Assembly: GCA_905181865.1 (NCBI GenBank)
Contig: CAJIZG010000005.1
Coordinates: 414,705-478,704 of the forward strand
Source: Urechidicola croceus
GTDB lineage: Bacteria; Bacteroidota; Bacteroidia; Flavobacteriales; Flavobacteriaceae
Length of the DNA: 64,000 nt
Direction: 5' to 3'
Positions within the stretch are counted from its first letter, which is position 1. Each line of letters opens with the position of its first letter. The notes below the pieces were generated by a model. The model did not search any database and had not been told where the DNA came from. It saw only the letters and a list, made by a program, of their open reading frames with translations. The position numbers were made by a program, and so were the translations under genes. This document shows positions 33,098-51,806 of this stretch, in pieces.

Positions 33098-33134
33098 AAA
33101 TCGTAGAGCGTTTATATGCTCTGCGATTTTTTTT
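33098..33134 (+). terminator. Terminator after the Gfo/Idh/MocA gene
   Basis: Stem AAATCGTAGAGC/GCTCTGCGATTT plus T-tract. Confidence 0.75.
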
Positions 33135-33200: not shown

Positions 33201-34106
33201 ATGATAGAAAAAAAATTAATTGCAGCAACATATACTCCATTAAAAGAAGACAGTTCCATTAATTTGGAATTAATCCCAACCTATAGTGACTTTCTACAAA
33301 GGAATAATGTATCAGGCGTTTTTGTCAATGGAACCACAGGAGATTTTACCTCATTGACTGTAGACGAGCGAAAATTGATTATTAATGAATGGGCTACAAA
33401 AAGAAATGAAAACTTTACGGTAATTAATCATGTCGGCCATACTAGTTTGAAGATAGCCAAAGAATTAACTATTCATTCAGCAGAGAAAGTAGATGGTATT
33501 TCGGCTTTACCTCCGTTTTATTTTAAACCGAGGTCATTGCAAAGTTTGTTAGATTATTGTAAGGAAATTGCCGCATGTGCTCCGAATTTACCTTTCTACT
33601 ACTATCATATTCCGATTCTTACTGGCGCGAACTTTTCAATGATAGAATTTTTAGAATTGGCAGATGAGCAGATTCCAAACTTAGGCGGAATCAAATTTTC
33701 TAATAATGATATTATAGGGCTAAGGCAGTGCTACAATTTTAAAGCGGGGAAATATGCCGTTTTTTATGGAGTGGATGAAATGTTTTTATCAAGCCTTCCC
33801 TACGGGATTAAAGGCTGGGTGGGTAGTACTTATAACCATTTAGCACCATTGTATCATAAAATTTATGAGGCTTTTAATAAGGGAGATATATCCTTGGCCA
33901 GTGAACTACAAGATAAGTCGGTTCAGTTTGTGCAAATGCTAGATGCTTTGGGTGGCTTCAATGGCGTAGGGAAATCGTTTATGAAAATAGTAGGAATTGA
34001 TTGCGGGCCGAGTAGATATCCTCATACGACACTTTCTAACAAGGATTTGTTAGAAGTAAAAACACAATTTGAAGAATTAAATATTATGAGTTACACTAAT
34101 AAATAG
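33201..34106 (+). CDS. nanA: N-acetylneuraminate lyase (DHDPS family)
   Basis: VNGTTGD, YYYHIP (catalytic Tyr), GIKFS (Schiff-base Lys), GVDE, GSTYN; sialic-acid gene context. Confidence 0.85.
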   Translation: MIEKKLIAATYTPLKEDSSINLELIPTYSDFLQRNNVSGVFVNGTTGDFTSLTVDERKLIINEWATKRNENFTVINHVGHTSLKIAKELTIHSAEKVDGISALPPFYFKPRSLQSLLDYCKEIAACAPNLPFYYYHIPILTGANFSMIEFLELADEQIPNLGGIKFSNNDIIGLRQCYNFKAGKYAVFYGVDEMFLSSLPYGIKGWVGSTYNHLAPLYHKIYEAFNKGDISLASELQDKSVQFVQMLDALGGFNGVGKSFMKIVGIDCGPSRYPHTTLSNKDLLEVKTQFEELNIMSYTNK

Positions 34107-34129: not shown

Positions 34130-34837
34130 TTATAAAATTCTGTAAAAATGAGGATCTAAATGAGTTCTCATGGCTGATCTGAAAGTCTCTGGTGTTCCAA
34201 TTTTAAGATTGTCGAGAAGATTTCTGTGGTTAATAATCGAACCTTTTACATGGTCTTTGGAAAGTTCTTCTTGTTCATGTACAAACTCAAAAATAGGGAG
34301 TAATAAAACTTGAAATCTTTGCAGAGTCACATTTCCAGACATTTGATATAACTTTCCATGAAACTGAATTTCATGTTCTAAGCTAAAAATGGAATCGTCA
34401 ACGCCCTGTTTTTCATCTGCCTCAACAATTTGTTCTAATTCGTCAATTCCTTTTTGTGTTTTTCTAGCAAATAAGGAGTCTGCCATTCCCATTTCTAAAA
34501 TTAACCGCAACTCAAATAGGTTTTTTAACGTCTCGTTACCTAATAACTTTGGATCCAAAACACGTTCGAAATTATCAATAAAATCGGGCTGTGTTAAAAT
34601 CATTCCTCGGTGCTTTTTAGATTCAATAATACCTAAAGTTCTTAATCTAAGCGACGCTTCTCGCACAACTGTCCTGCTTACTCCTAGCGATTCAACCAGT
34701 TCTAATTCCTTAGGAAAGGCATCTCCTGGAACTAAATTATTCTCTTTAATAAATGCCACCAATCGAAGTTCAACTTTATCAACAAGTGATAAATTATCTA
34801 AGGGTTTAATTTTCTTAATAGTTTTTGTTTTTGCCAT
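34130..34837 (-). CDS. FadR/GntR family transcriptional regulator (probable nan repressor)
   Basis: wHTH ELELVESLGVSRTVVREA, FCD domain LFELRLILE...FHGKL; divergent from the nanE operon. Confidence 0.92.
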   Translation of the reverse strand: MAKTKTIKKIKPLDNLSLVDKVELRLVAFIKENNLVPGDAFPKELELVESLGVSRTVVREASLRLRTLGIIESKKHRGMILTQPDFIDNFERVLDPKLLGNETLKNLFELRLILEMGMADSLFARKTQKGIDELEQIVEADEKQGVDDSIFSLEHEIQFHGKLYQMSGNVTLQRFQVLLLPIFEFVHEQEELSKDHVKGSIINHRNLLDNLKIGTPETFRSAMRTHLDPHFYRIL

Positions 34838-34949: not shown

Positions 34950-34962
34950 TATGTTAGACATA
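34950..34962 (+). promoter_or_regulatory. Putative FadR/GntR operator TATGTTAGACATA just downstream of promoter TATGTTTG (34939-34946)
   Basis: Core of a 7-bp-arm palindrome ATTATGT-TAG-ACATAAT (34948-34964). Confidence 0.72.
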
Positions 34963-36138
34963 ATGAAAGAGATCCAACTAAGCGAACTTTACAAAAGCAC
35001 TCTTTTACAAGATGTGATTCCATTTTGGGAGCAAAATTCTGTCGACTGGCAAAATGGAGGGTACTATACTTGCCTAGATAGGAAGGGGAAAGTTTTTGAG
35101 CGGGATAAGTTTATGTGGCTACAAGGTCGACAAGCTTGGATGTTTTCTATGCTGTATAATAATGTTGAGAAAAATGAAAAATGGCTGAAAATCGCAAAAA
35201 ACGGAATTGATTTCTTAATCAATAAAGGAATGGATCTCGAGGGGAATTTCTATTTTTCATCTACAGAACAAGGAGAGCCTTTAGTTCAGCCATATAATAT
35301 ATTCTCAGATTGCTTTGCGGCTATGGCTTTTAGTCAATACGCAATTGCAACTAAAGACGAATCAATAAAAAAACTAGCAATTCAAACATATTATAATATT
35401 TTAAAGAAAAAAGACAATCCAAAATTACAGTTCGAAAAATCTACCGGAGCCAGACCTTTAAAAAGTTTTGCATTTCCGATGATTCTTTCCAATTTGGTAA
35501 TTGAATTTGAAGATGTGTTAAAAAATGAGGAAGTTGAAAAAATAATTAACTTTAGTATTCATGAAGTTATGGAAGTCTTTTTAGATAAAAATTCTGGACT
35601 TGTTTATGAATTTGTAAAACCTGATGGTTCTTTAGAAGACAGTTTCAACGGGCGTCTTCTAAATCCGGGCCATGGTATCGAAGCAATGTGGTTTATGATG
35701 GATATTGGGGTTCGAAGAAATGATCAACAATTAATTCAAAAAGCAGTAAACACAACAATAAAAATATTGGAACATAGCTGGGATGATCAGTTTGGAGGCA
35801 TCCTATATTTCATGGATGCTAATGGAAAACCACCTCAACAATTAGAATGGGATCAAAAATTGTGGTGGGTACATTTAGAAAGTTTAATAGCATTATCTAA
35901 AGCGTATGAACTAACACAAAGAAAAGAAGTACTGGCTTGGTATCAAAAAGTACACGACTATGCATGGTCACATTTTTCAGACCCAGAGAACGGCGAATGG
36001 TTTGGCTATTTAAACAGACAAGGCGAGGTGTTACTAGATTTAAAAGGTGGGAAATGGAAGGGTTGTTTTCATGTCCCAAGAGCCATGTATCAGTGCTGGA
36101 AATCATTTGAAAATATTGAGAGACAATTAAAGGATTAA
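34951..36138 (+). CDS. nanE: N-acylglucosamine 2-epimerase (AGE family; likely start ATG 34963)
   Basis: [41 protein letters not shown]. Confidence 0.93.
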
Positions 36139-36143
36139 ATAGT

Positions 36144-36917
36144 ATGAATAATAAACCAAGACCTTATATTCTTTCAGAAACCAATTGGAAAACTGTTAAA
36201 GAAAATACGTATACCGTGGCAATGCTACCTTGGGGTGCTACAGAAGCGCATAATTACCACTTACCTTATGCCACAGATACCATTCAGGCTATCTATGTTG
36301 CAAGTGAATCAGCAAGACTTGCATGGGAAACAAAGGCAAAACCAATTGTACTGCCTGCCATACCGTTTGGAGTAAACACGGGTCAAATGGATATTCCATT
36401 GTGTATAAATATGAATCCATCTACACAATATGCCGTTTTAAAGGATATCGTTCAAGTATTGGACAGTCATAATATCGACAAACTTTTGATTGTGAATAGT
36501 CATGGAGGAAATAATTTTAAGCAAATGATTCGTGAGTTAAGTCTGGAATATCCTGATGTTTTTATATGTACCATAAATTGGTGGCAAGCAGTAAATGTTT
36601 CAATATATTTCGATGAGCCTGGAGATCATGCCGGTGAGTTGGAAACTTCTGCCATGCAATTTATAACCCCAGATTGGGTGTTACCATTAAAAGATGCCGG
36701 AAATGGAAAAGCCAAGCAATTTAAATTAAAAGGATTGAAAGAAGGGTGGGTTTCTTCTCAACGTAAATGGACATCCGTTACTAAAGATACTGGTGTGGGT
36801 AATCCGCAATTTGCCACCAAAGAAAAAGGAGAATTATTTTTAAAAGAAGTTACAAAATCTATCGGTGAATTTATTGTAGAACTACACCACGCAGATTTAA
36901 ATAATTTATATGAATAA
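36144..36917 (+). CDS. Creatininase-family metal amidohydrolase
   Basis: GATEAHNYHLP..TD, NSHGGN, DHAGELETS. Confidence 0.9.
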   Translation: MNNKPRPYILSETNWKTVKENTYTVAMLPWGATEAHNYHLPYATDTIQAIYVASESARLAWETKAKPIVLPAIPFGVNTGQMDIPLCINMNPSTQYAVLKDIVQVLDSHNIDKLLIVNSHGGNNFKQMIRELSLEYPDVFICTINWWQAVNVSIYFDEPGDHAGELETSAMQFITPDWVLPLKDAGNGKAKQFKLKGLKEGWVSSQRKWTSVTKDTGVGNPQFATKEKGELFLKEVTKSIGEFIVELHHADLNNLYE

Positions 36918-36940
36918 TATATCTAATCAAATTCGAAAAA

Positions 36941-38074
36941 ATGAAAAATTATATTCTAGTATTCTTATCAATTTTAACACTTTCTGTAAGTGCTCAAAAG
37001 GAAGAATTCTCGATTGCCGAGGGAGTTACTCGGTATGTCGATCTTTTTAATACAACCATGGAAGACGGAGTTTCTTGTTATCGAATTCCATCAATTGTTA
37101 CGGCTCCAAATGGAGATATAATTGCAACTATAGATGAGCGCGTTCCATCGTGCTCGGATTTAAAAGACAGTAAAGACATCAATATTGCGATTCGAAGAAG
37201 TTCTAATAACGGAAAATCATGGACACCTATTGAAATTATTGTAGATTTTCCGTTGGGACAATCTGCTTCAGATCCATCTATGATTGTTGATAATATCACA
37301 AAGGAAATTTTCTTGTTTTACAATTATATGGATTTAGACAAGGAAAAGGATGTGTATTATTTACATGTGGTAAAAAGTGCTGATAATGGAAAAACTTGGA
37401 GTAAACCAGAAGATATTACTTCTCAAATTAGTAAGCCAGAATGGCACAAGGACTTTAAATTTATTACTTCAGGCAGAGGAATTCAAACATCTACGGGTAA
37501 GTTGTTACATTGTATGGTAAACCTAGATAATGGTACGCATTTGTTCGGAAGTGATGATCATGGTAAAACATGGTTTTTTATTGATACTCCAATTTCTCCA
37601 GCAAATGAATCTAAGGTTATTGAATTGGCTGATGGAACTTGGATGGTCAATGCGAGATCCAAAGATAAAAAAGGCTTTCGATATGTACATACTTCTCATG
37701 ATGAAGGAGAAACATGGACTGCAAAGTCCGAAGAACAATTGATAGATCCAGGTTGCAATGCAAGTATTATTAGATATACATCAATTGATGAAGGCTATAA
37801 AAAAAACAGACTTCTTTTTTCAAATGCAAATTCCGTAAAAGGCCGAGTAAACATGACTGTGAAAATTAGTTATGATGAAGGTAAAACATGGCCTGTAGAA
37901 AAAATAATTTATGAAGGTGGATCAGCCTATTCCTCATTAACGATTCTAGAAAATGGAGATATAGGATTATTTTTTGAACAAGATGTTTATAAGAAAAATC
38001 CATTCGTGAGTTTTTCCTTAAAATGGTTGACCGATGGTGACGATAAATACAAAAAACCGAAGAGCCTAAAATAG
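36941..38074 (+). CDS. Exo-sialidase GH33 (1)
   Basis: Signal peptide, YRIP, five Asp boxes (SSNNGKSW...SYDEGKTW), SAYS Tyr nucleophile. Confidence 0.92.
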   Translation: MKNYILVFLSILTLSVSAQKEEFSIAEGVTRYVDLFNTTMEDGVSCYRIPSIVTAPNGDIIATIDERVPSCSDLKDSKDINIAIRRSSNNGKSWTPIEIIVDFPLGQSASDPSMIVDNITKEIFLFYNYMDLDKEKDVYYLHVVKSADNGKTWSKPEDITSQISKPEWHKDFKFITSGRGIQTSTGKLLHCMVNLDNGTHLFGSDDHGKTWFFIDTPISPANESKVIELADGTWMVNARSKDKKGFRYVHTSHDEGETWTAKSEEQLIDPGCNASIIRYTSIDEGYKKNRLLFSNANSVKGRVNMTVKISYDEGKTWPVEKIIYEGGSAYSSLTILENGDIGLFFEQDVYKKNPFVSFSLKWLTDGDDKYKKPKSLK

Positions 38075-38129
38075 AAATATTATTTTAGTAAATTGTCGAC
38101 TATTTTAAATAACTGAGTAGATTAGTAAC

Positions 38130-40994
38130 ATGAAGAAACTTTTCGAGGAATTGCAAAATACAGTATCAGGTGAAATCTTATATGATGAGCTTTCTTTAGG
38201 AATGTATTCTACCGATGCTAGTATTTATCAGATAAAGCCAATTGCCATAGTTCTACCTCGAAATGAAGACGATATCAAAAGTGCCATAAAGGTGGCTTTT
38301 GATAACGGAATAACTATTTTACCTCGTGGAGCAGGAACTAGTTTGGCAGGACAAACTGTTGGCAAATCTATTATTCTTGATTTCTCTAAACATATGAATT
38401 CCATTATTGAAATCAATGAATCAGAGAAATGGGTTCGTGTTCAACCGGGAATGGCTCGAGACGATTTAAACGCCGTTTTAGAACCCCTAGGGTTACATTT
38501 TGCTCCAGACCCAGCAACAAGTAGCAGAGCAAATGTTGGAGGAATGGTTGGTAATAACTCTTCTGGGACTAAGAGCGTACTCTTTGGTAAAACAGTAGAT
38601 CATGTATTAGAAGTCAATGTTGTTTTAGCAGAAGGGACTGAATTACATCTTAAAAATTGTTCGCCAGAAGAGTACCAAAAGAAAGCATCTCAAGAAAATA
38701 GAGAAGGAGAAATTTATCGCACCATTAAGGACTTAATCGATGCGCATACGGATGAAATCAAAGAACGATTTCCTAAGGTAATGCGTCGCGTTGGAGGCTA
38801 TAATTTAGATGAATTTGTATATACAGATCAATGGAACTTGAGTAAGTTGGTTTGTGGTAGTGAAGGAACACTTGCAACAACAGTTGATCTAAAATTAAAT
38901 CTTGTTGATTTACCCAAAAATAAATCAGTATGTGTAGTTCACTTTACTGAATTGTTGGAAGCAATTTCTGCCGTTGAAATAATATTAACATTTAATCCCT
39001 CAGCCGTTGAAATATTAGATAAAACGGTTATTGGGTTAAGTAGAAAGAATTTAATGACAAAGCATCATTGTCATTTCATAGAAGGTAATCCAGCCGCAAT
39101 ATTAATTGTGGAGTTTTATGCAGATACTGCCGAGGATGTTATGGAGCGTCCAAAAAAGATGATTACTTTGTTAGAGGAAACCAATTTTGGTTACGCATAT
39201 CCTTTATTTCCCGATGGAAAATCATACAGTGATGTTTGGATAGTTCGTAAAAAGGGATTGGGATTAATGTTAGGTTTAAAAGGAAATAAAAAACCACTAC
39301 CATTTATTGAAGATGCCGGAATTCCATCAAAATATTTACCAGAATATATAGATCAAGTTTTAAAGGTTTGTGAAAAGTACGGAACCAAAGCAGCAATGTA
39401 TGCACATGCAAGTGTAGGCGTTATTCATGTACGTCCAATTTTAGATTTGAGGTTGGCAGAGGATATTGAACGCTTAAAAAATATTACCGATGACACTTTT
39501 CAATTAGTCATGAAATACAAAGGTTCTTGGAGTGGTGAGCATGGTGATGGATTGGTAAGAAGTGCCTACAACAAACGTTTTTTTGGAGATACAATTTATA
39601 AGGTGTTTTTAGACGTTAAAAAGTTAATGGATCCAAAAAATTTAATGAATCCCGGTAAAATTATTGAAGCTCAAACTATTGAGCACAATTTAAGATATGG
39701 TGTTGCCTATAAAGATGAGGGGGTAAAAACTGAATATAATTATAAGTCAGAAGAAGGATTCGAAGCGGCAGTTCATATGTGTTCTGGTGTAGGTGAATGC
39801 AGAAAGGTTTTGGGAGGAACTATGTGTCCAAGTTTTAAAGCTACGAGAGATGAAGAACATTCTACGCGTGGACGCGCGAATGCCTTGAGGCTGGCCATGT
39901 CGAATCAACTGGGAGAAAAAGGCCTGTCTAGTAAACGATTGCATGAGGTTATGGATTTATGCTTGTCTTGCAAGGCTTGTAAGTCAGAATGCCCGAGTAA
40001 TGTAGACATGGCAAAGATGAAGAGTGATGCCTTACAAATGTATTATGATGAACACGGCATTTCATTAAGAGATAAACTAATACGAGATTCTGCTAAGGCG
40101 GCGAGTAAGATTTCAGGTTCAAAAGCAGGCCTCGTAAATGCCATTCAAAAAACAGATTTATTTAAGTTTTTCTTAGAAAAAGCGGCACGTTTTGACAAGC
40201 GAAGGACACTTCCAGATTTTGCCAAAGAACCCTTTTATAAATGGTTTAAGAAAAACGCAAGAGAAACAAATATTGGAAACAAAAAAGTAGTTTTATTTGC
40301 CGACACCTATTTAAATTATCACGAGCCTCATATCGGAATATCTGCTCTAGAATTGTTAAATTCTTGTGGGTATGAAGTCATCTTAGCAAATGTTGGTTGT
40401 TGTCAAAGACCAAAGATATCTCATGGCTTTTTAAGAGACGCCAAGCAGGAAGGTATAAAAACTATTGACGGGTTAAAACCATTTTTAGATCAAGGTTTAA
40501 AAGTTGTGGTCTGTGAACCAAGTTGTGCTTCGGCATTGAATGACGATTTACCAGATTTAATTACCGATCAAGCAATTGCAGAACAACTAAAAAATGGCGT
40601 TATGATGATTGATGTTTTCCTTGCAAATGAATATGAAAACGAAAGATTAGATGTAGACTTTGAGCCAGTTTCTGACGGTATTGTGATTCACGGTCACTGT
40701 CATCAAAAGGCATTGTATGGCACAAATACGATGAAATCGTTGTTAAAAAATTCTGATAAGGTATCGGAAATTCCTTCGGGCTGTTGTGGTATGGCTGGTT
40801 CTTTTGGATACGAAAAGGAACATTATGATCTGTCTAAGAAAATTGGTGACGAAATTTTATTTCCAGCGGTTAATAAATTAGATAAAAATCATGAATTGAT
40901 AGCTTGCGGATTTAGTTGTCGCCACCAAATAGGACACTTTACAGAGGCAAATCCAAAGCATTTTGTGGAAGTAATTAGAGCTGTTAAAAAATAA
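38130..40994 (+). CDS. FAD-binding/Fe-S 2-hydroxy-acid dehydrogenase (GlcD-GlcF/YdiJ-type fusion)
   Basis: PRGAGTSLAGQ, GSEGTL, SGEHGDG, ferredoxin CLSCKACKSECP, CCG domains GCCQ and SGCCGMAGSFG. Confidence 0.9.
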   Translation: MKKLFEELQNTVSGEILYDELSLGMYSTDASIYQIKPIAIVLPRNEDDIKSAIKVAFDNGITILPRGAGTSLAGQTVGKSIILDFSKHMNSIIEINESEKWVRVQPGMARDDLNAVLEPLGLHFAPDPATSSRANVGGMVGNNSSGTKSVLFGKTVDHVLEVNVVLAEGTELHLKNCSPEEYQKKASQENREGEIYRTIKDLIDAHTDEIKERFPKVMRRVGGYNLDEFVYTDQWNLSKLVCGSEGTLATTVDLKLNLVDLPKNKSVCVVHFTELLEAISAVEIILTFNPSAVEILDKTVIGLSRKNLMTKHHCHFIEGNPAAILIVEFYADTAEDVMERPKKMITLLEETNFGYAYPLFPDGKSYSDVWIVRKKGLGLMLGLKGNKKPLPFIEDAGIPSKYLPEYIDQVLKVCEKYGTKAAMYAHASVGVIHVRPILDLRLAEDIERLKNITDDTFQLVMKYKGSWSGEHGDGLVRSAYNKRFFGDTIYKVFLDVKKLMDPKNLMNPGKIIEAQTIEHNLRYGVAYKDEGVKTEYNYKSEEGFEAAVHMCSGVGECRKVLGGTMCPSFKATRDEEHSTRGRANALRLAMSNQLGEKGLSSKRLHEVMDLCLSCKACKSECPSNVDMAKMKSDALQMYYDEHGISLRDKLIRDSAKAASKISGSKAGLVNAIQKTDLFKFFLEKAARFDKRRTLPDFAKEPFYKWFKKNARETNIGNKKVVLFADTYLNYHEPHIGISALELLNSCGYEVILANVGCCQRPKISHGFLRDAKQEGIKTIDGLKPFLDQGLKVVVCEPSCASALNDDLPDLITDQAIAEQLKNGVMMIDVFLANEYENERLDVDFEPVSDGIVIHGHCHQKALYGTNTMKSLLKNSDKVSEIPSGCCGMAGSFGYEKEHYDLSKKIGDEILFPAVNKLDKNHELIACGFSCRHQIGHFTEANPKHFVEVIRAVKK

Positions 40995-41025
40995 AAGAAG
41001 TATACAATACATAAAATATATACAT

Positions 41026-42138
41026 ATGAAAACCTATAAAGAATTAAACACAAGCAGACGCGTATTAATGGGTCCTGGACCAAGTGATACGCATCCAAGA
41101 GTTTTAAAAGCAATGTCAACTCCTTTAATAGGTCATTTAGACCCAGAATTTTTAGAAATAATGGATGACATAAAATCTATGACACAAGAAACATTAAAGA
41201 CAAAGAACGAATTGACTTTTGTTGTATCAGCACCTGGAAGTGCAGGGATGGAAACGTGTTTGGTTAATTTATTAGAGCCTGGTGATGAAGCCGTAGTCTG
41301 TATAAATGGTGTTTTTGGGACACGTTTGGCTGATATTGCAGAACGTTGTGGCGCAAAAGTAATTAAGATAGAAGCAGCATGGGGCTCTCCAATTAACCCA
41401 GACGATGTGGAAGCTGCATTAAAGACATGTAATCCAAAATTATTAGCTATTGTCCATGCAGAGACTTCAACAGGTGTATTACAGCCTCTAGAAGAAATTA
41501 GCAAAATATCCAAAAACGCTGGAGCACTTTTAGTAGTTGATGCTGTGACTTCATATTGCGGGACTGAATTAAAAGTAGATGAGTGGGGAATTGATGCTTT
41601 ATATTCTGGAAGCCAAAAATGTTTAAGTGCGCCTCCTGGTCTATCTCCTGTAACCTTTAGTCAAGCTGCTATTGATGTACTAAATAATAGAAAAACAAAA
41701 GTTCAAAGTTGGTTTTTAGATTTAACAATGGTTAAAAATTATTGGTCAGGAGCGAAGAGAGCGTATCATCATACGGCACCAGTTTCTGCTATGTTTGCCA
41801 TGAGGGAAGCTTTAAGATTGGTTCTTGAAGAGGGGCTTGAAAACAGGTTTAAGCGTCATCAGAAAAATCACGAATTATTACGTGATGGATTAGAGGCAAT
41901 GGGCTTTAAATTCTTAGTGGATAAGGAATATAGATTACCGATGTTGAACGCCGTTACAATTCCTGCAGGAGTTGACGATGCAAATGTTAGAAAACGATTG
42001 TTAGAAGAATATAATATAGAAATTGGTGGAGGATTAGGCCCTTATGCTGGAAAAATTTGGCGTATTGGATTAATGGGTGAAAGTTCTACTAAAAATAATG
42101 TAAACATGTTATTGTCTGCATTGAAACAAGTAATATAA
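41026..42138 (+). CDS. Alanine--glyoxylate/serine--pyruvate aminotransferase (class V)
   Basis: LMGPGPS, VHAETSTG, VDAV, SGSQKCLSAPPG, YHHTAP, WRIGLMG. Confidence 0.92.
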   Translation: MKTYKELNTSRRVLMGPGPSDTHPRVLKAMSTPLIGHLDPEFLEIMDDIKSMTQETLKTKNELTFVVSAPGSAGMETCLVNLLEPGDEAVVCINGVFGTRLADIAERCGAKVIKIEAAWGSPINPDDVEAALKTCNPKLLAIVHAETSTGVLQPLEEISKISKNAGALLVVDAVTSYCGTELKVDEWGIDALYSGSQKCLSAPPGLSPVTFSQAAIDVLNNRKTKVQSWFLDLTMVKNYWSGAKRAYHHTAPVSAMFAMREALRLVLEEGLENRFKRHQKNHELLRDGLEAMGFKFLVDKEYRLPMLNAVTIPAGVDDANVRKRLLEEYNIEIGGGLGPYAGKIWRIGLMGESSTKNNVNMLLSALKQVI

Positions 42139-42151
42139 TACTAAATTAATT

Positions 42152-43036
42152 ATGTCAGTAATCACAGATTTTTCCGATTTTCATCATCAGGTTTCAACAA
42201 TATTTAAACAGCCTCAGTCCTCAGAAGAATGGGAGCAATATCGATTGACCGATGAGCAAGTAGCACATTTTCATGAATTTGGTTACGTTTCTGGAATTAA
42301 ACTCTTGGAAGAAAATCAAATAAATTTATTGAGAAAGGAACTAGAAGAGTTGAGAGATCCTAAACATCCTGCGCATCATCTTTTTTACGAGTTTCATTCA
42401 AATGAATCCACAAATAGTGATGCTGTTTTGTTTCATTCTTTAGGTCATTGGCGCATAGGTTTAAATTTTCATGACGTCCTTTGGAATCCCGCTTTTGTAA
42501 TGGCCGCTCATCAATTATTGGAAAACAAACCAGTTCGATTCTGGCACGATCAACTATTTTGTAAACCTGCAAAACATGGTGGAGTTGTTGCCTGGCACCA
42601 AGATTACTCTTACTGGACACGTACTATTGCAATGCAACATTTAACCTGTTGGACTGGGTTAGATGATGCTACAACACAAAACGGCTGTTTACATTATATT
42701 CCAAAAAGTCACAAATGGGGGCTTCTAGATGCCCCTAATTTGGCTGGTAATATGGATGAATTGCTGCAGTATCTGAGTCCCGAACAAAAAAAGGAATTCA
42801 ACCCAGTAGCGATTGAATTGAAAAAAGGGTATAGTACTTTTCACCATCCTTTGATGGTTCATGGATCCTATGAAAACAACTCTCAATTAAGAAGAAGAGC
42901 TTTTGTATTAAACGTTTTTGCTGATGGAACCATAAGCAATACAGATCAAGAATTATTACAAGGTGTTCCTATAATTTCAAAAGGAAAAAAAATGGAGGGA
43001 AAATTTTTTCCTTTGCTTTATGATCAACATTCCTAA
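42152..43036 (+). CDS. PhyH-family Fe(II)/2-oxoglutarate dioxygenase
   Basis: HxD in WHQDYSYW, distal His in MVHGS, Arg in RRRAF. Confidence 0.9.
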   Translation: MSVITDFSDFHHQVSTIFKQPQSSEEWEQYRLTDEQVAHFHEFGYVSGIKLLEENQINLLRKELEELRDPKHPAHHLFYEFHSNESTNSDAVLFHSLGHWRIGLNFHDVLWNPAFVMAAHQLLENKPVRFWHDQLFCKPAKHGGVVAWHQDYSYWTRTIAMQHLTCWTGLDDATTQNGCLHYIPKSHKWGLLDAPNLAGNMDELLQYLSPEQKKEFNPVAIELKKGYSTFHHPLMVHGSYENNSQLRRRAFVLNVFADGTISNTDQELLQGVPIISKGKKMEGKFFPLLYDQHS

Positions 43037-43078
43037 TTTATAAAAAAGAAAATAAAAAAATTGTAAACCTCTTAATCA

Positions 43079-44224
43079 ATGAAACTTAATGTAAAAACTT
43101 TTATTAAATGCCTTACCCTCTTACTATTATTCAGTATCAAAATAAATTCACAGGGTACGAAGCAATTAAATAAAGAATTATCGAAAGATATAAAAACGTT
43201 GTTCACCCCTAGTGAAGGAGACTATAATTGTTTTAGAATTCCAGCTGTTGTTGTGGCTAAAGACGGCAGTATATTAGCCTTTGCTGAGGCTAGAAAGAAA
43301 AGTTGCTCGGATACAGGTAATATCGATATAGTGATGAAAAAATCTACTGACAATGGAGCATCATGGAGTAATTTGATAGTTATTTGGAATGATGGACAAA
43401 ATGTATGTGGGAATCCTGCACCTGTAGTAGATGCTAAAACAGGTACAGTTCATTTGCTATTGACTTGGAATAATGGAGACGACCATGAATCTGAAATAAT
43501 TGCTCAAACTAGTGGAGAAACTCGAGAAGTTTATCATTTACAATCTTCAGACAACGGTGACTCTTGGTCACAACCAAAAAATATTACTGCAACTACGAAA
43601 TTAAAAAATTGGACGTGGTATGCAACAGGGCCTGTACATGGAATTCAATTGAAAAAAGGGCCATATAAAGGAAGGCTCATGATTCCTTCGGACCATATAG
43701 AAGCGGGTACAAAAAAATATTATTCTCATGTGATTTATTCTGACGACAACGGAGTATCTTGGGAATTGGGAGGAAGAACTCCACAAGATCAAGTGAATGA
43801 ATGTACACTAGTACAACTAGAAAATGGTGATTTGATGTTGAACATGCGTAATTATGAGCGAAAAGAAGATCAGGCGCGTCAGGTAGCAATAAGCAAAGAT
43901 GGAGGAGTGACATGGGGAAATCAGCATATTGACACCAATTTGCCCGAACCACGTTGTCAAGCAGCCTTACTAGCTGTTATGAGAAAACGGAAGCAAGTAT
44001 TACTTTTTATCAATCCAGCAAACCCAAAGAAAAGAGTCAATATGACACTATCTGTGAGTAGGGATCAAGGAAAAAGTTGGGATGAAAAAATCAGTGTTTT
44101 TAAAGGCCCTTCCGCCTATTCTGATCTTGTTGAATTGAATACCAATCAAATATTTGTGTTTTTTGAAGCAGGAGAAAAGAATGCGTATGAAGGAATTCAT
44201 TATAAATTAATTGATCTGGATTAA
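43079..44224 (+). CDS. Exo-sialidase GH33 (2)
   Basis: Signal peptide, FRIP, five Asp boxes, NMRN, AYSD. Confidence 0.92.
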   Translation: MKLNVKTFIKCLTLLLLFSIKINSQGTKQLNKELSKDIKTLFTPSEGDYNCFRIPAVVVAKDGSILAFAEARKKSCSDTGNIDIVMKKSTDNGASWSNLIVIWNDGQNVCGNPAPVVDAKTGTVHLLLTWNNGDDHESEIIAQTSGETREVYHLQSSDNGDSWSQPKNITATTKLKNWTWYATGPVHGIQLKKGPYKGRLMIPSDHIEAGTKKYYSHVIYSDDNGVSWELGGRTPQDQVNECTLVQLENGDLMLNMRNYERKEDQARQVAISKDGGVTWGNQHIDTNLPEPRCQAALLAVMRKRKQVLLFINPANPKKRVNMTLSVSRDQGKSWDEKISVFKGPSAYSDLVELNTNQIFVFFEAGEKNAYEGIHYKLIDLD

Positions 44225-44280
44225 TCGATGCTTAATATTTTTATTAGAATGATACGACTTAATTACGAAATCCAATCTCT

Positions 44281-46971
44281 ATGAAACAATTAGCGGTTGT
44301 TCTACTTTTATACTTCCTAAGTTTTATTAATTCAAATGCTCAAAAATCTTCTAGTATTTTTGATTGGACTTACGATAAAGAGATTCCGAATGAAGTAGGA
44401 TTGAATGGTTCATTTATGGGAATTCATAATGATGTATTAATCATTGCAGGTGGTGCTAATTTTCCAAACACTCCTGTCTGGGAAGGTGGTGAAAAAGTAT
44501 GGTATTCATCCATTTATGTTTTAGAAAAAAAAGGGACTAAGTCGAAATGGCATCTAGAACCTTCAGTTAGATTAACTAATGCATTGGCATACGGAGTTTC
44601 AATAAGCACTCCACAAGGTGTTTTGTGCATTGGTGGTGATAATGAAACAGAAGTATTCAAAGATGTCTTTTTATTAAAATGGAATAAAAAAAGCAATAAA
44701 ATAGAGATTCAAGACCTACCTCCTATGCCTATAAATTTATACAATATGGGCGCAAGTATTGTTGAAGATATTGTTTTTGTAATTGGAGGACAAGAGTCAA
44801 AAAGTACCGGAGCAACAAATCATTTTTTGTCGTTTAATTTAACTTCAACATTGACAAGTAAAGCATATACATGGGAGCAATTAGAAAATTTTCCTGGAAG
44901 AAGGAGAGTGCAACCGGTAGTTGTTGGTCAAAGTAATGGACATCAAGATTGTTTATATGTATTTAGTGGAATTTCATATGATCCCACTGCAGAAGTAACC
45001 CATACTATGCTAGATGATGTCTATGAATTTAATCCTCATAAAAATCGATGGACACAAAAGGAATCTGTTCCCAACAATGGAACACCGGGAGTAATAGGAG
45101 GTTATATTGCGGCTGCTCCAGCCATAAAAATGGGAGATTCTCACATTGTGATTTTTGGAGGAGCCGGAGGTGAACAGCAAAACCTTTCGCGACGAATTCC
45201 GATTTGGAATGCCATTAAAAAGTTAAAAAGTGAAATTAATCAAAATGAAGAAACGATTGCGAAAATTGATTCATTAAATATGATTGATAATGAATTGTTG
45301 AAAACCACTCGATTCAGTAAAATCGTTTGGTCATATCATTCAATCACAGATACTTGGAGTAAAAAAGGGGTGCTACCAAGTGACGCTCAGGTAGTAACTC
45401 AAGCATTGAATTGGAATAATAACATAGTAATATCTGGTGGAGAAATACATCCAGGTGTAAGAACTCCAAAAATTACCATTGCCACACAAAAACCCTATGA
45501 AGCCAGTTTTGGCTGGATAAATTATATAACTCTTATTACATATTTAATGTTAATGGTTTGGATGGGATGGTATTTCTCACGAAAAAATAAAACAACAGAT
45601 GATTATTTTCTTGCGGGAGGTAGAATTCCATGGTGGGCTGCTGGGTTAAGTATTTATGCTACTATGTTAAGTGCCATTACGTATTTGTCACAACCGGCAT
45701 TAGCATATTCTTTTGACTGGCAGGCATATTTGGGGTATTTTGCCATTTTGATTGTAGTCCCTGTTGTAATAGCTTTTTATCTGCCTTTTTTCAGGAAATT
45801 AAATATTACCACGGCATACGAATATTTGGAAAAAAGATTCAACTTAACTATTAGAATGTTTGGAAGTATATCTTTCATCTTATTTCAATTAGTAAGAATG
45901 GGAATTGTAGTATATCTTCCTGCCTTAGCCCTTTCAACAGTTGTCGGAATTGATATTTATTTAGCAATCAGTGTTATGGGGGTTTTAGCAATTCTTTATA
46001 CCTATATGGGTGGAATGGAAGCCGTGATCTGGACAGATGTGGTACAAGTAATTGTATTGATGGCAGGTTTAATCATTGGATTGATTTATATCGGCATTGA
46101 GATTGGAGATGTAGGCTATATTTTTGATACGGCATTGGCCGATGGTAAACTTCAAATGGTAGATTTACGATGTAGTTTTATAGAAGTAGTAACATGGTCC
46201 TTATTTATTGGCACATTTGCTTTGACATTAATTCCATACACCACAGACCAGTCAGTAGTGCAGAGATACATGACGACATCGAGTGAAAAAGAAGCACGAA
46301 AAAGTATATGGCTAACTGGAATTATTACTCTCCCAGCGGGTCTTCTAATATTTGCAATGGGTACATTTTTGTATGTCTATTTTAAAGAACATCCCGAATT
46401 TTTGAGTGTCGGTATGCAGAACGACAGTGTATTTCCTTTATTTATTACAAATCATTTACCTCCTGGGGTTGCAGGTTTGGTTATAGCTGGAATTTTTTCT
46501 GCTTCCATGTCGAGTTTAGATAGCAGTATGCACAGTATTTCTACCGTTGTGACCGTAGATTTTTATAAGAGATTTACGAAAGTCTATTCTGATACTAATG
46601 GTCTTAAAATTGCAAAATGGACTACAGTTATTGTAGGAGTTTTCGGAACCCTGATTGCATGTTTAATGGCCGCTTTCCCTGTAAAATCGTTATTCTTTTT
46701 GTTTCAAGAAGTAATTGGTCTTCTGGGAAGTGCAATGGCAGGAATATTTATTCTCGGAATTTTTGTTAAGAAAGCCAATTGGAAGGGAACACTAATAGGA
46801 GCTGTATTTAGTATTATAGTTTTAGTGTTTGTTAAATATAACACCCCTATTAACTTTTATATCTATCCTTTAATTGCAATTCCTATATGTGTCATTGGAG
46901 GATATCTTTTCAGTCTAATTTTAAAAGTTGAAGAAAAAGACATATCCGATTTGGTCTATTCAAAAAAATAA
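44281..46971 (+). CDS. Kelch-repeat sialic acid mutarotase (NanM-like) fused to a Na+/solute symporter (SiaT-like)
   Basis: Signal peptide; about 410 aa kelch propeller (IAGGANFP, LCIGG, VIGG, ISGGEIHPGVRTP); then SSS domain DYFLAGG..WWAAGLSIYAT.LSAITY, YTYMGGMEAVIWTD, DQSVVQRY. Confidence 0.88.
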   Translation: MKQLAVVLLLYFLSFINSNAQKSSSIFDWTYDKEIPNEVGLNGSFMGIHNDVLIIAGGANFPNTPVWEGGEKVWYSSIYVLEKKGTKSKWHLEPSVRLTNALAYGVSISTPQGVLCIGGDNETEVFKDVFLLKWNKKSNKIEIQDLPPMPINLYNMGASIVEDIVFVIGGQESKSTGATNHFLSFNLTSTLTSKAYTWEQLENFPGRRRVQPVVVGQSNGHQDCLYVFSGISYDPTAEVTHTMLDDVYEFNPHKNRWTQKESVPNNGTPGVIGGYIAAAPAIKMGDSHIVIFGGAGGEQQNLSRRIPIWNAIKKLKSEINQNEETIAKIDSLNMIDNELLKTTRFSKIVWSYHSITDTWSKKGVLPSDAQVVTQALNWNNNIVISGGEIHPGVRTPKITIATQKPYEASFGWINYITLITYLMLMVWMGWYFSRKNKTTDDYFLAGGRIPWWAAGLSIYATMLSAITYLSQPALAYSFDWQAYLGYFAILIVVPVVIAFYLPFFRKLNITTAYEYLEKRFNLTIRMFGSISFILFQLVRMGIVVYLPALALSTVVGIDIYLAISVMGVLAILYTYMGGMEAVIWTDVVQVIVLMAGLIIGLIYIGIEIGDVGYIFDTALADGKLQMVDLRCSFIEVVTWSLFIGTFALTLIPYTTDQSVVQRYMTTSSEKEARKSIWLTGIITLPAGLLIFAMGTFLYVYFKEHPEFLSVGMQNDSVFPLFITNHLPPGVAGLVIAGIFSASMSSLDSSMHSISTVVTVDFYKRFTKVYSDTNGLKIAKWTTVIVGVFGTLIACLMAAFPVKSLFFLFQEVIGLLGSAMAGIFILGIFVKKANWKGTLIGAVFSIIVLVFVKYNTPINFYIYPLIAIPICVIGGYLFSLILKVEEKDISDLVYSKK

Positions 46972-48077: not shown

Positions 48078-49235
48078 ATGAATGATTTAAAAATAGAAAA
48101 GGTCGAGCTTTTTAAAGTCCCTCCGAGATGGTTGTTTCTAAAAATAACCACCAAATGTGGTATTGTTGGATGGGGAGAACCTATAGTTGAAGGAAAAGCA
48201 GATACTGTTGCGGCGTGCATAAAAGAATTAGAACAATATATAATGGGTCGAAACGCCAATAATATCGAAGATATTTGGCAAATTTTATATAGAGGTGGCT
48301 TTTATAGAGGAGGCCCTATCTTGATGAGTGCAATATCTGGTATTGATCAAGCCCTATGGGATATAAAAGGTAAATATTTAAATGTCCCTGTTCATGAATT
48401 ATTAGGTGGAGCTGTTCGTCAAAAAATGAAAATGTACTGCTGGATTGGAGGAGATAATCCCGAAGTTGTTTTAGATCAGGCTACTAAAAAAATAAATGCT
48501 GGTTTTAATGCCGTAAAGATGAATGCAACGGGTGGAATGGAATGGGTTTCTTCCATAAAAGACATTAAGAATGTTGCAAACAATATCAAACTCTTACGAG
48601 AAGAATTCGGATATGAGTTAGACATAGGATTAGACTTTCATGGAAGGGTACACAAACCAATGGTTAAGAGACTTATAGACGAATTGGCTCCTTATGAACC
48701 TATGTTTATTGAAGAGCCCGTTTTAAGTGAAAATAATGATGCGCTACGTCATATTTACCAATACACCAATATTCCAATTGCAACGGGAGAACGTATGTTT
48801 TCAAGATGGGATTTTAAGGAGATTTTACACCAAGGGGTTGTTGATATTATTCAACCAGATCTTAGTCACGCCGGAGGTATCTCTGAAGTTAGACGCATTG
48901 CCACAATGGCTGAAGCCTATGATATTGCCATTGCTCCTCATTGTCCCTTAGGGCCAATCTCATTGGCTTCTGCACTTCACTTAGATTTTGTATCCTCTAA
49001 TGCTATCATTCAAGAGAGTAGTTTGGGAATACATTATAACAGAGGATATGACATCTTAGATTATGTCTTAAACCCAGAAGTTTTTAATGTAGAGGATGGC
49101 TCTATAAACTTACTTACAAAACCTGGTTTGGGAATTGAAATTAATGAAGAAAAACTAAAAGAAGGTCAAAAAATTGGACACAATTGGGCCAATCCCATTT
49201 GGAGAAATCCCGACGGAAATTTTGCAGAATGGTAA
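48078..49235 (+). CDS. dgoD: D-galactonate dehydratase (enolase superfamily)
   Basis: VPPRWLFLKI, GWGEP, FYRGG, DFHGR, FIEEP, ATGER, PHCPLGP, WRNPDG..AEW end. Confidence 0.92.
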   Translation: MNDLKIEKVELFKVPPRWLFLKITTKCGIVGWGEPIVEGKADTVAACIKELEQYIMGRNANNIEDIWQILYRGGFYRGGPILMSAISGIDQALWDIKGKYLNVPVHELLGGAVRQKMKMYCWIGGDNPEVVLDQATKKINAGFNAVKMNATGGMEWVSSIKDIKNVANNIKLLREEFGYELDIGLDFHGRVHKPMVKRLIDELAPYEPMFIEEPVLSENNDALRHIYQYTNIPIATGERMFSRWDFKEILHQGVVDIIQPDLSHAGGISEVRRIATMAEAYDIAIAPHCPLGPISLASALHLDFVSSNAIIQESSLGIHYNRGYDILDYVLNPEVFNVEDGSINLLTKPGLGIEINEEKLKEGQKIGHNWANPIWRNPDGNFAEW

Positions 49236-49277: not shown

Positions 49278-50600
49278 ATGATCTTTATAATCGCGCTTAT
49301 TTTTTCTTTAGCCTTTTTAGTTGTAACCATAATTAAGTTTAAAATACATCCCTTTTTCAGTCTTTTATTAACCGCTATTATTTATGGTTTTTTTACAGGA
49401 ATGGATATAGAGTTGATCATAAATTCTATCAACTCTGGATTTGGAGATATTCTTGGAAAGATTGGATTAATTATTCTCTTTGGAGTTACTATAGGAACCA
49501 TACTAGAAAAATCTGGTGGAGCCCTTGTAATTGCAACGCGCATTCTAAATGTGATTGGGGAAAGATTTATTCATTTAGCCATGATGCTTACTGGTTATTT
49601 TTTATCCATTCCCATATTTGCAGATAGTGCACTATTAATAATGAACCCATTGAATAAAGTGCTTTCTAAAAAGGCAGGAGTCTCTTATGCCGGAACAACT
49701 GCGGCCTTAGCCATGGGGCTTACAGCGTCACATGTAATGGTTCCGCCAACACCTGGGCCAATTGCTGCGGCAGGTATTTTAGGAGCGAACCTAGGTGATG
49801 TAATACTTTGGGGGTTACTCGTTAGTACATTGTCATTGATTCCTTGCTACTTTTATGCTACCAAATTGGCATCTAAAGTTACGATTCCCATTATTATTGA
49901 ACCAATTGCAAATGTAAAACGTCAACCCAAACTAAATATTTCTTTACTCTGTATCGTTGTTCCATTAATTTTAATCCTTCTTAAATCTGTGCTAGAATAT
50001 CCTGAATTGGACTTTAATCCATCTCTATTTAAAACAGTTTTATCTTTTATAGGTACTCCCGTAATTTCATTATTAATAGGGGTTTTACTTTCTTTATTAT
50101 TACCAGAGAAATTAGATGAAAAAATAATTTCTTCAAAAGGTTGGATGGGTGAATCACTTTTAGTAGCAGCCCCAATAATTTTAATTACAGGAGCAGGCGG
50201 TATCTTCGGAAAAATGCTTCAAAACTCAGGAATTTCAGACTTAATAACTACCGGATTTACAGGACTTGAAATTGGATTATTTTTGCCATTTCTATTAGCT
50301 TCCTGCCTTAAATCTACTCAGGGCTCGTCTACGGTAGCACTTGTAACAACTGCTTCAATTGTTGCTCCAATGATTTCTGTTTTGGGATTGAATGATCCTT
50401 TTCTTCTTACAATGACCGTTTTATCTATCGGTGCAGGTTCTTCCGTAGTTACACATGTAAATGATAGTTTTTTCTGGGTGTTAATACAACTAACAGGAAT
50501 GAATGTTAAACAAGGATATCAAATTCTAACGGCGGGAACTTTTATTTTTGGAGTAGCAGCGATGTTTATAATTTTTATTATTACACAAATCATGATGTAG
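49278..50600 (+). CDS. GntP family gluconate/aldonate permease
   Basis: GTILEKSGGA, VPPTPGPIAAA, KSTQGSSTVA, HVNDSFFWV. Confidence 0.92.
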   Translation: MIFIIALIFSLAFLVVTIIKFKIHPFFSLLLTAIIYGFFTGMDIELIINSINSGFGDILGKIGLIILFGVTIGTILEKSGGALVIATRILNVIGERFIHLAMMLTGYFLSIPIFADSALLIMNPLNKVLSKKAGVSYAGTTAALAMGLTASHVMVPPTPGPIAAAGILGANLGDVILWGLLVSTLSLIPCYFYATKLASKVTIPIIIEPIANVKRQPKLNISLLCIVVPLILILLKSVLEYPELDFNPSLFKTVLSFIGTPVISLLIGVLLSLLLPEKLDEKIISSKGWMGESLLVAAPIILITGAGGIFGKMLQNSGISDLITTGFTGLEIGLFLPFLLASCLKSTQGSSTVALVTTASIVAPMISVLGLNDPFLLTMTVLSIGAGSSVVTHVNDSFFWVLIQLTGMNVKQGYQILTAGTFIFGVAAMFIIFIITQIMM

Positions 50601-50804
50601 ACTTTCACCTTTGATATCTCCTAATTTATCTTGAAAAATAAAAGTAATTTATTCGAGTTTGTTGTTATAGTTTCTTGACCTCGCTTTCTGCCTTGCAAGT
50701 TTCCTTTAAAACCATAGTCTGTATAAAATGCTGTTAACACGTATATTCTAGACTTTAATTCTTCTGTTAATTTCTTTATTCTAAATGAGCCTTTAGTTCC
50801 TATT

Positions 50805-51806
50805 AACCTGAGTTCGATTCATAAAAACTTAACTGATTAGACGCTACTTTTTGATATTTAATGGAAGGTTTTTTAGGCAGAAAACTATATGCTAAAAGGC
50901 CTGCAACTATATTTGACAAGAAGTTAGTAAAACTTCTATGTCTAGAATGTTCAATTTGACAACTATTTTTAAGTTCATCATGTACCGTTTCAATAATAGA
51001 ACGTTTTCTAAGTAATATTTTATCGCTCATAGTCATTAAAGAATTCTTCGTATTGTTTTTAATATGAGTAATCAAATGTAATCCGTGAGCAAAAAGAAGT
51101 TGCATCAAATCCTTACCAATATATCCTTTGTCAGCATATAATTTTCCGTATATTTTATCTAAAAAAATTTTCTTTTTTAGTGGTGTTCTGTCGTCAATAT
51201 TGGCTTGAGTAATGGTAAAATTCAGGATTTCTCCTTTGTCATTTATAATACTGTGAAGTTTGAATCCTTGAAACCACCCCATCGTAGATTTTCTAGTAGT
51301 AGCAATGCCTTTACATACTTTATTGTTTCTAATTCGTTTGGGTTTACAAACTCTAATAGGTGTAGAATCTACAAAAGAAATACCTGTAGAATCACCCAAA
51401 CGGCAGGTTTTTAAAAACAAAGTCATCGCCATTAAATTTTGACCAACGAGTTCTGTAAATCTGTTGTAAGAAACCGTTGAAGGAAAATCACCTTTTATCT
51501 ATTTTTGAACATAAAAAACATAGAAATGCTTGAAGGTTCTAAAACCACTTAACTGAAATAGAATACAGCGTATAATCACCTCACTTTTACTCATTATAGA
51601 CGGTCGTTTTGATGGATTTCCTAAAAGAGATGCATCAACGACTTTATCATATTCTTTGCAGAATTCGTCAACAATACAAAATATTTCTGTAATTTTAGGA
51701 TAGATTAACATAGATGAAGTTTTAGATTGATCTTCAGATCTTTAATTTACTTAAAACCTATCTTTTATCTAAAAAATGGAGCCTAAATATTAATCGAACT
51801 CAGGTT
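50805..51806 (-). mobile_element. IS982-family element with inactivated transposase
   Basis: Perfect 15-bp terminal IR AACCTGAGTTCGATT (50805-50819 / 51792-51806); transposase 51711-50803 with one in-frame TAG (51499-51501); FVDST, GFKLH, ADKGY, KRSIIETV. Confidence 0.92.

Follow-up and report, generated by a model that had tools for sequence, protein, structure and literature searches.

We analyzed a 64,000-nucleotide stretch of the genome of Urechidicola croceus (Flavobacteriaceae; contig CAJIZG010000005.1, positions 414,705 to 478,704 of the forward strand), hereafter the window, which carries a nan operon and, within it, a gene for a PhyH-family oxygenase predicted to depend on Fe(II) and 2-oxoglutarate (2OG), here called PhyH1. 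The original prediction, made from the sequence alone, had read this enzyme as a candidate demethylase of methylated sialic acid or of its hexosamine product. Our comparison of related loci points tentatively to a broader role, in which PhyH1 would be a methoxy-sugar O-demethylase, the oxygenase partner of an alcohol dehydrogenase (ADH) and an esterase, recruited here to a sialoglycan island. The gene and its key residues are the following, conservation being measured in an alignment (A1) of 37 family sequences with 26-82% identity:

42152-43036 (+): PhyH-family Fe(II)/2OG oxygenase PhyH1, 294 amino acids (aa), ATG start, predicted cytoplasmic; recognised from its open reading frame, Pfam, an AF2 model and orthologues
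42596-42604 (+): codons of H149-Q150-D151, the HxD iron ligands in the WHQDYSYW motif; at least 90% conserved in A1, positions checked
42860-42862 (+): codon of H237, the distal iron-ligand histidine (MVHGS); invariant in A1
42893-42898 (+): codons of R248-R249, either of which is a candidate binder of the C5-carboxylate of 2OG; at least 90% conserved in A1

The antisense strand of the gene is dense in stop codons. Its product matches the Pfam family PhyH (PF05721) along the whole profile (positions 1-213 of 213; E 5.4e-32, 112.2 bits against a cut-off of 22), and the AF2 model (pLDDT 95.3, pTM 0.93) has a double-stranded beta-helix fold, its top 50 Foldseek matches all being PhyH-type oxygenases of that fold (probability 1.00). 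The assignment to the PhyH-type Fe(II)/2OG oxygenases made in the original prediction is thereby borne out, and the HxD...H...R set that it had described as intact (H149, D151, H237 and R248/R249) is conserved in A1, where K138, D133 and N242 are also invariant and W148 shares the conservation of the adjoining HxD residues. The absence of a signal peptide holds as well, the N-terminus (MSVITDFSDFHHQVSTIFKQPQSSEEWEQYR) showing no hydrophobic segment by eye. PhyH1 reached no curated equivalog cut-off in an NCBIfam profile scan: it scored 44.9 bits against PhnY* (NF052437; cut-off 500), 28.6 bits against the ectoine hydroxylase EctD (TIGR02408; cut-off 336.5) and 25 bits against the chlorinating-enzyme model (cut-off 226), and the match to human PhyH (2A1X) amounts to only 46.6 bits. 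Hundreds of orthologues are 66-100% identical to it, and short contigs from marine metatranscriptomes (four runs from two studies) match positions 42325-42952 at 99-100% identity. Given the intact reading frame, the orthologues and these contigs, we regard PhyH1 as real, conserved and expressed; it is an intact-looking PhyH-family oxygenase of an uncharacterised orthologue group.

PhyH1 does lie inside the nan operon, as had been stated, being co-directional with its neighbours and tightly spaced: it starts 13 bp after an AGXT-type gene (end 42138) and stops 42 bp before a second sialidase gene (start 43079), and the stretch from 34951 to 46971 showed no terminator-like site between genes. The genes around it are:

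29475-30275 (-): PF00756 esterase, consistently paired with the ADH (Pfam)
30287-31396 (-): Zn-dependent ADH, FoADH/ZoADH orthologue of the nan-associated 'type A', with 72-73% identity to other ADHs only where these adjoin nan-type genes
31591-33057 (+): Gfo/Idh/MocA oxidoreductase with a twin-arginine signal (SRRSFIK); Pfam, and BT_2158-like in NCBIfam at 425 bits, below the cut-off
33098-33129: strong terminator-like hairpin after the Gfo/Idh/MocA gene
33201-34106 (+): NanA-like lyase (Pfam/NCBIfam)
34130-34837 (-): NanR-like GntR regulator (Pfam/NCBIfam)
34951-36138 (+): N-acylglucosamine 2-epimerase (AGE), above its equivalog cut-off (639 > 600 bits)
36144-36917 (+): creatininase-family amidohydrolase, 5 bp after the epimerase gene (Pfam/NCBIfam)
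36941-38074 (+): sialidase 1, or Sia1 (Pfam/NCBIfam)
38130-40994 (+): FAD/Fe-S 2-hydroxyacid oxidase (FADox), 954 aa (Pfam/NCBIfam)
41026-42138 (+): AGXT-family aminotransferase, 395 bits to PDB 1VJO
43079-44224 (+): sialidase 2 (Pfam BNR_2)
44281-46971 (+): fusion of a NanM mutarotase and an SSS transporter in one 896-aa reading frame (Pfam NANM (kelch) and SSF; NCBIfam)

The ADH-esterase pair of the window stands ~11 kb from PhyH1, on the same island; in at least 14 other loci PhyH1 is directly adjacent to such a pair. Scores of 517 bits against PDB 8H2A and 489 bits against 8H2B, which are FoADH and ZoADH (PMC10033563), identify the ADH of the window as an orthologue of these enzymes. FoADH and ZoADH, together with an esterase, adjoin the P450 that demethylates 6-O-methyl-galactose, and a Zobellia ADH knockout does not grow on this sugar (PMC10033563). 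Among 56 loci that we fetched with the ADH, 52 have the esterase, and in 29 an oxygenase gene, or one resembling it, lies no more than 10 kb away, the types being a distant PhyH relative that we call PhyH2 (14 loci), PhyH1 itself (7), a P450 (4) and a putative diiron protein (4). Two of the P450 loci were read gene by gene: a ferredoxin-reductase gene stands alongside in both (L125 and L129) and a ferredoxin gene in L129. ADH, esterase and PhyH1 occur in one row in L002, L004, L007, L008, L012, L044, L086, L091, L097, L098, L104, L107, L127 and genome G071; such rows make up nine of 80 PhyH1 loci and seven of the 56 ADH loci. A correlation between PhyH and the ADH/esterase pair, which had been put forward as worth looking for, is thus seen in recurrent adjacency, and also in co-occurrence across the genomes of 201 Flavobacteriaceae genera (odds ratio 9.2, p = 0.002).

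The distribution of PhyH1 is complementary to that of the P450. We examined 18 ADH-bearing genomes. The P450 is encoded in 13, for the most part no more than 3 kb away from the ADH, and a PhyH-family gene is present in each of the other five, adjoining the ADH in three. Within the Flavobacteriaceae, the P450 (63-82% identical) is present in 10 of 13 ADH-bearing genomes, nine times within 3 kb of the ADH, and the three genomes without it (that of the window, G071 and G143) all have PhyH1 (hypergeometric p = 0.035). G071 shows a lactonase-UxaB-UxaA-Eda-KdgK-ZnADH series, two AraC genes and an ADH-esterase-PhyH1 row with a galactonate dehydratase (a DgoD orthologue) directly after it, and in G143 a sulfatase and a galactokinase come after the ADH-esterase pair. 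The phylum-wide sample adds five ADH-bearing genomes, three with the P450 and two without; the latter have a distant PhyH, which in one of them is separated from the ADH by 141 bp. A haem-motif scan and tblastn found no P450 of the demethylase type in the genome of the window or in any PhyH1 locus, and the idea of a P450 hidden there was set aside. Since the published P450 accepts 6-O-methyl-galactose only (PMC6292453), other methoxy sugars are left without a known demethylase.

We then scored the neighbours of PhyH1 in 80 orthologue loci with 10-kb flanks. The family is compact, with only 111 representative clusters at E <= 1e-30 among 1.8 billion proteins, and spans aerobic Bacteroidota, namely Flavobacteriaceae, Cyclobacteriaceae, Spirosomataceae (Dyadobacter), Chitinophagaceae and others, soil isolates included; its occurrence is patchy (17 of the 201 Flavobacteriaceae genera). 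Eighteen of the 80 loci have a fucose/galactose-type gene set within 5 kb, made up of L-fucose dehydrogenase (352 > 300 bits), FucP (542 > 280), a fucono-lactonase-like protein, tagaturonate reductase (UxaB), a UxaA-type dehydratase, KdgK and Eda. ADH and esterase are nearby in nine loci, and a Gfo/Idh/MocA homologue in 13 from three lineages, with identities of 80% (two Flavobacteriaceae loci), 48% (six Dyadobacter loci) and 30-32% (five Algoriphagus loci). Further carbohydrate-related neighbours are DgoD, GalK, sulfatases, GH29, GH20, sialidases and AraC regulators. PhyH1 is therefore best described as an accessory component of sugar-catabolic loci, and since its usual company is fucose and galactose catabolism, the family is not specific to sialic acid. 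A quick IQ-TREE phylogeny of PhyH tracks taxonomy; loci with sialidase, ADH-esterase, fucose/galactose or Gfo contexts are scattered over it, and a sialidase-linked subclade was rejected on this account. The sisters of the window's PhyH1 in this tree are L013 (with a sialidase), L003 (with a sialidase and the ADH-esterase pair) and L127, whose gene order is FADox-AGXT-PhyH-ADH-esterase-sulfatase.

On these grounds we consider, with a probability of roughly 40%, that PhyH1 is a methoxy-sugar O-demethylase that partners the FoADH/ZoADH-type ADH and the esterase, and that in this role it would take the place of the CYP P450 6-O-methyl-galactose demethylase of porphyran degraders. An O-methyl sugar would be imported after glycosidase action, PhyH1 would hydroxylate its methyl carbon, and the resulting hemiacetal would collapse into free sugar and formaldehyde; in a more speculative variant, the ADH would oxidise the hemiacetal to a formate ester, to be hydrolysed by the esterase. 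The family-wide context points to a galacto- or fuco-configured methyl sugar, and locally the substrate could be methyl-galactose from a glycan, methylated sialic acid or its hexosamine product.

Several observations weigh against this interpretation. The link to demethylation is one of guilt by association, and the nearest characterised structural relatives (SnoK/SnoN, MysH, proline/leucine hydroxylases and EctD) are not O-demethylases. An identity of 66-85% maintained across very different sugar contexts argues for a single PhyH1 substrate. As to the partners, FoADH and ZoADH fail to oxidise formaldehyde, with or without glutathione, mycothiol or bacillithiol (PMC10033563), and 27 of the 56 ADH loci have no oxygenase within 10 kb. 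Conversely, 12 of the 17 PhyH1-bearing Flavobacteriaceae genera have no ADH and PhyH1 stands without a nearby partner on its strand in 32 of 78 loci, so that the ADH-esterase pair is not obligatory for PhyH1. Finally, genome size and lifestyle are possible confounders that would raise the co-occurrence statistics of PhyH1, and the counts correspond to fewer independent events than they suggest, many of the associated loci being phylogenetically related.

The reading of the original prediction, a dedicated demethylase for methylated sialic acid (e.g. 8-O-methyl-Neu5Ac/Gc) or for O-methyl-ManNAc/ManNGc after NanA cleavage, appears unlikely for the family as a whole, while several features keep it in view for the island. 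The part of it that stands is an intact, predicted-cytoplasmic 2OG oxygenase in a nan operon, its gene placed between two sialidase genes. Adjacency of Sia1 and PhyH1 recurs in Arenibacter, Aureibaculum, Jejuia, Urechidicola and L003, and a Sia1-type sialidase is found in 7 of the 17 PhyH1 genomes against 10 of 184 others (odds ratio 12, p = 1e-4, uncorrected for phylogeny and genome size). Moreover, ADH and esterase sequences at least 72% and at least 64% identical, respectively, to those of the window have nan-type genes as neighbours in every case (the window, L003 and L081-L084), i.e. there is a nan-specific ADH-esterase subtype, which we call type A. This pair is accompanied by PhyH1 in the window and in L003, and by another putative oxygenase in clusters of Arenibacter and Maribacter. 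The Arenibacter aquaticus cluster encodes neuraminidase-like, O-acetylesterase-like, NanA-like and AraC proteins on one strand and, on the other, a 478-aa putative oxygenase, a reductase, an AGE-like protein (505 bits), ADH, esterase and a sulfatase, so that an oxygenase and reductase of another kind hold there the place of PhyH1. As the ADH-esterase pair travels with a variable oxygenase in sialic-acid clusters too, the sialic-acid idea stays alive for this island.

What does not stand is the dedication to sialic acid. Linkage of orthologues to nan genes had been singled out in advance as a check, and a sialidase lies within 10 kb in only 10 of the 80 loci, leaving 70 without one; likewise, 9 of the 17 PhyH1 genera have no GH33 homologue. 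With most orthologues lying apart from nan genes, the data do not support a family-wide function dedicated to sialic acid. Sialidase-linked copies of PhyH1 form no separate clade, close orthologues reside in the soil genera Dyadobacter and Chitinophaga, and the closest sister, L127, combines PhyH1, ADH and esterase but shows no sialidase within the ~10-kb flanks that were retrieved. The association with echinoderms that had also been envisaged was not seen, the runs holding the locus being seawater, estuary and plankton metagenomes.

A further possibility, quite unlikely in our judgement, is that PhyH1 removes no alkyl group at all and acts as a sugar or sugar-acid hydroxylase, an epimerase or an oxidative deaminase, in the manner of SnoK/SnoN or KanJ, readying an imported sugar for a dehydrogenase and an aldolase. 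KanJ is a PhyH-family aminosugar deaminase, and sugar moieties are the substrates of SnoK/SnoN and EvdO2, the characterised enzymes nearest in fold; the frequent Gfo/Idh/MocA, xylose-isomerase-like TIM-barrel and ThuA-like neighbours would suit such a function, as they belong to keto-sugar pathways. However, KanJ is absent among both the sequence and the fold matches, and this explanation accounts neither for the complementarity with the P450 nor for the constant company of the ADH-esterase pair.

The methoxy-sugar interpretation can also be taken further, to a form that we hold to be improbable: PhyH1 would then be a methoxy-sugar O-demethylase of the non-haem Fe(II)/2OG type, the first of its kind, and one of at least four interchangeable oxygenases (P450, PhyH1, PhyH2, and a putative diiron protein with its reductase) plugged into glycan loci, where the ADH-esterase pair would make formate with no free formaldehyde, and its task here would be to open methylated sialoglycans. 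Our literature search found no paper linking a PhyH or 2OG dioxygenase to sialidase loci, polysaccharide utilization loci or methoxy sugars, and no description of the PhyH1 family or of a 2OG-dependent sugar demethylase.

Still less likely is an oxygenase for a non-carbohydrate small molecule (an amino acid, an osmolyte or a lipid-like compound), whose position in sugar loci would be incidental. The loci where PhyH1 has no close partner, the many unrelated neighbourhoods and the location of the gene within an accessory island are in line with it, as is the presence among the structural neighbours of GriE and proline hydroxylase H11, both of which hydroxylate free amino acids, and of EctD. Yet PhyH1 is repeatedly arranged in operons with the ADH-esterase pair, a sialidase, DgoD and sugar regulators of the AraC type, irrespective of lineage, and the scores stay far under the EctD and PhnY* cut-offs (29 against 337 bits and 45 against 500, respectively).

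The two genes upstream of PhyH1 raise a last alternative. Among 80 loci fetched with AGXT, FADox is present in 41 and an LctP-family permease in 35, which defines a conserved Bacteroidota module, LctP permease-FADox-AGXT, probably serving glycolate uptake, oxidation to glyoxylate and transamination to glycine, or else acting on D-lactate or D-2-hydroxyglutarate. Apart from the window, a single lineage (L127/L147/L148) has FADox-AGXT next to PhyH1, and the permease is missing in both cases. Its presence without a permease in a nan operon fits an internal source of hydroxyacid, such as the N-glycolyl group of Neu5Gc, and the adjacency weakly supports a PhyH reaction that releases glyoxylate. As a general partner of PhyH, however, FADox-AGXT was rejected, neither gene being found nearby in any of the 80 PhyH1 loci scored above. 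Very unlikely, then, is a PhyH1 that oxidises the N-glycolyl group of Neu5Gc-derived sugars or cleaves a carboxyalkyl ether in a TfdA- or MysH-like way, with AGXT turning the glyoxylate into glycine: the FADox-AGXT-PhyH1 order, with AGXT directly after the glycolate-oxidase-like FADox, and the rank of MysH, which removes a glycine-derived carboxymethyl group, as second-best solved relative would favour it, but FADox-AGXT is a module of its own, present in more than 35 loci, usually in the company of its lactate/glycolate permease, and only two lineages have it together with PhyH1; the identity to MysH, moreover, is just ~20%.

Two other observations concern this part of the locus. A contig of a metagenome-assembled genome (MAG), L146:1381-5929, matches window positions 37779-42327 at 99.3% and has unrelated flanks; the block runs from the 3' end of sialidase 1 to 175 bp into the PhyH gene, and was not used as an independent FADox-AGXT context, being either a rearrangement that truncates both genes or a chimeric MAG assembly. 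An aminoethylphosphonate route (PhnW plus PhnY*) was likewise rejected: the aminotransferase is of the AGXT family by its match to 1VJO, PhyH1 falls far short of PhnY*, and the locus is without PhnZ/PhnX.

The remaining features of the surrounding region are:

24423-53161: accessory island of ~29 kb, delimited by comparison with the same-genus genome G155
25946-28264 (-): FdhF/YdeP-family molybdopterin oxidoreductase (TIGR01701, 887 > 582 bits), on the same strand as the esterase and 1.2 kb downstream of it
48078-49235 (+): galactonate dehydratase DgoD (NCBIfam NF010624, 623 > 311 bits)
49278-50600 (+): GntP-family transporter
50803-51432 (-): IS982 transposase, near the end of the island

In G155, the regions flanking the block (16.4-24.4 kb and 53.2-60 kb of the window) are adjacent, the left one inverted, and this genome has no PhyH1, ADH or sialidase; we therefore take the ~29-kb block as an accessory island. 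A link to formate through the FdhF/YdeP molybdenum oxidoreductase was dropped, as a homologue stands beside the pair in none of 145 other loci, and the 772-774-aa genes that adjoin PhyH1 in L086 and L091 are GH3 proteins, not molybdenum enzymes. Homologues of the NanM::SSS fusion are found in other PhyH-linked nan loci at 37-40% identity, and at 74% in Urechidicola. Ten of the 80 PhyH1 loci have the creatininase-family gene next to PhyH1 or to sialidase 1, among them a Cyclobacteriaceae locus (L049) that lacks a sialidase.

ADH-esterase pairs were also observed in other settings. The genome of the window holds a second compact triad (contig C3:495186-501680, minus strand), with ADH, esterase and a 316-aa PhyH paralogue that are 63%, 53% and 51% identical, respectively, to those of the window. 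It sits downstream of an SSS transporter and a 587-aa fusion of a ROK kinase and a MurNAc-6P etherase (MurQ-like, 253 bits), and close to a GH92 gene and three tandem SASA-like esterase paralogues of 667-689 aa. PhyH2, of ~272 aa and 23-26% identical to PhyH1 of the window, lies by the ADH-esterase pair in L103, L106, L111, L114, L116-L120, L122-L124, L126 and L135, and in genome G540 (C11:110361-112213); the Sphingobacteriaceae loci that were inspected closely add a GH13 amylase-like enzyme, AraC, a CBM-bearing esterase and an MFS transporter, and the PhyH2 cluster could act on a modified alpha-glucan. The putative diiron protein of 478 aa (L082:6334-8831, also L083, L084 and L132) has two ExxH motifs and no Pfam or NCBIfam match. 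It is followed in the Arenibacter and Maribacter loci by an FNR/2Fe-2S reductase, and then by the AGE-like, ADH, esterase and sulfatase genes, while an Edaphobacter MAG carries a 54%-identical copy beside an ADH-esterase pair; the two proteins possibly form a new two-component oxygenase.

Methyl ethers block sugar catabolism, and to our knowledge the only known bacterial sugar demethylase is the P450 specific for 6-O-methyl-galactose. PhyH1 is a small and conserved candidate oxygenase, with no need of redox partners, for the methylated sugars of algae, invertebrates and plants, and the ADH-esterase pair is seen to travel with interchangeable oxygenases. If the demethylase interpretation is true, PhyH1 would add a new step to the degradation of marine glycans, and hence to the carbon cycle, and provide a simple biocatalyst for sugar demethylation; if PhyH1 does something else, the trio of ADH, esterase and oxygenase is still marked as an unexplained and widespread module.

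With the characterised members of the PhyH family (human phytanoyl-CoA 2-hydroxylase, PHYHD1, EctD, SnoK/SnoN, EvdO2, MysH, GriE, proline hydroxylase H11 and SyrB2), PhyH1 has in common the fold, the HxD...H triad and the 2OG-binding arginine. These proteins are just 17-22% identical to it (Foldseek TMq 0.55-0.72), and PhyH1 differs from them by an N-terminal extension, by the family-specific WHQDYSYW and FHHPLMVHGS blocks and by its context, which is catabolic and not biosynthetic. The best match in the PDB, in both sequence and fold, is RESC14, a subunit of the trypanosome mitochondrial RNA-editing substrate-binding complex (8FNC and others), at 27% identity, TMq 0.89 and E 4e-33 over residues 6-291, the next PDB match being at 2e-15. 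Unlike PhyH1, RESC14 belongs to an RNA-protein complex and reads WQQNY (QxN) at the HxD site, and is presumably non-catalytic because this motif is lost; the match is uninformative on the substrate of PhyH1, and hints at a descent of the kinetoplastid protein (8FNC chain 14) from a PhyH1-like bacterial oxygenase. After RESC14, the solved relatives are MysH, SnoK/SnoN, EvdO2, human PhyH, proline/leucine hydroxylases and EctD, and as the characterised ones are ~20% identical, homology yields for PhyH1 the class of chemistry and not the substrate.

As to that chemistry, O-dealkylation by T6ODM/CODM and by TfdA-type 2OG dioxygenases releases formaldehyde or glyoxylate. These enzymes belong to other 2OG subfamilies than PhyH1 (DOXC and TauD/TfdA, respectively) and act on aromatic or alkaloid substrates. 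T6ODM and CODM, the plant Fe(II)/2OG O-demethylases of morphine biosynthesis, set a precedent for oxidative O-dealkylation, for which we rely on a reference cited within PMC6292453 (its ref. 42).

Closest in context is the CYP236-type P450 of Zobellia galactanivorans and Formosa agariphila, which comes with a ferredoxin, a ferredoxin reductase, FoADH/ZoADH and the esterase. The two oxygenases are not homologous: the P450 is a haem-thiolate enzyme that requires NADH and two redox partners, whereas PhyH1 is a non-haem Fe(II)/2OG enzyme that would require none, and the activity of the P450 on 6-O-methyl-galactose is proven and specific, that of PhyH1 being predicted. They nevertheless have the same ADH-esterase neighbour, both inhabit sugar loci of marine Bacteroidota, and every ADH-bearing genome examined has the P450 or, failing that, a PhyH-family gene; the chemistry proposed for PhyH1 is also the same, namely hydroxylation of the methyl group to give sugar and formaldehyde.

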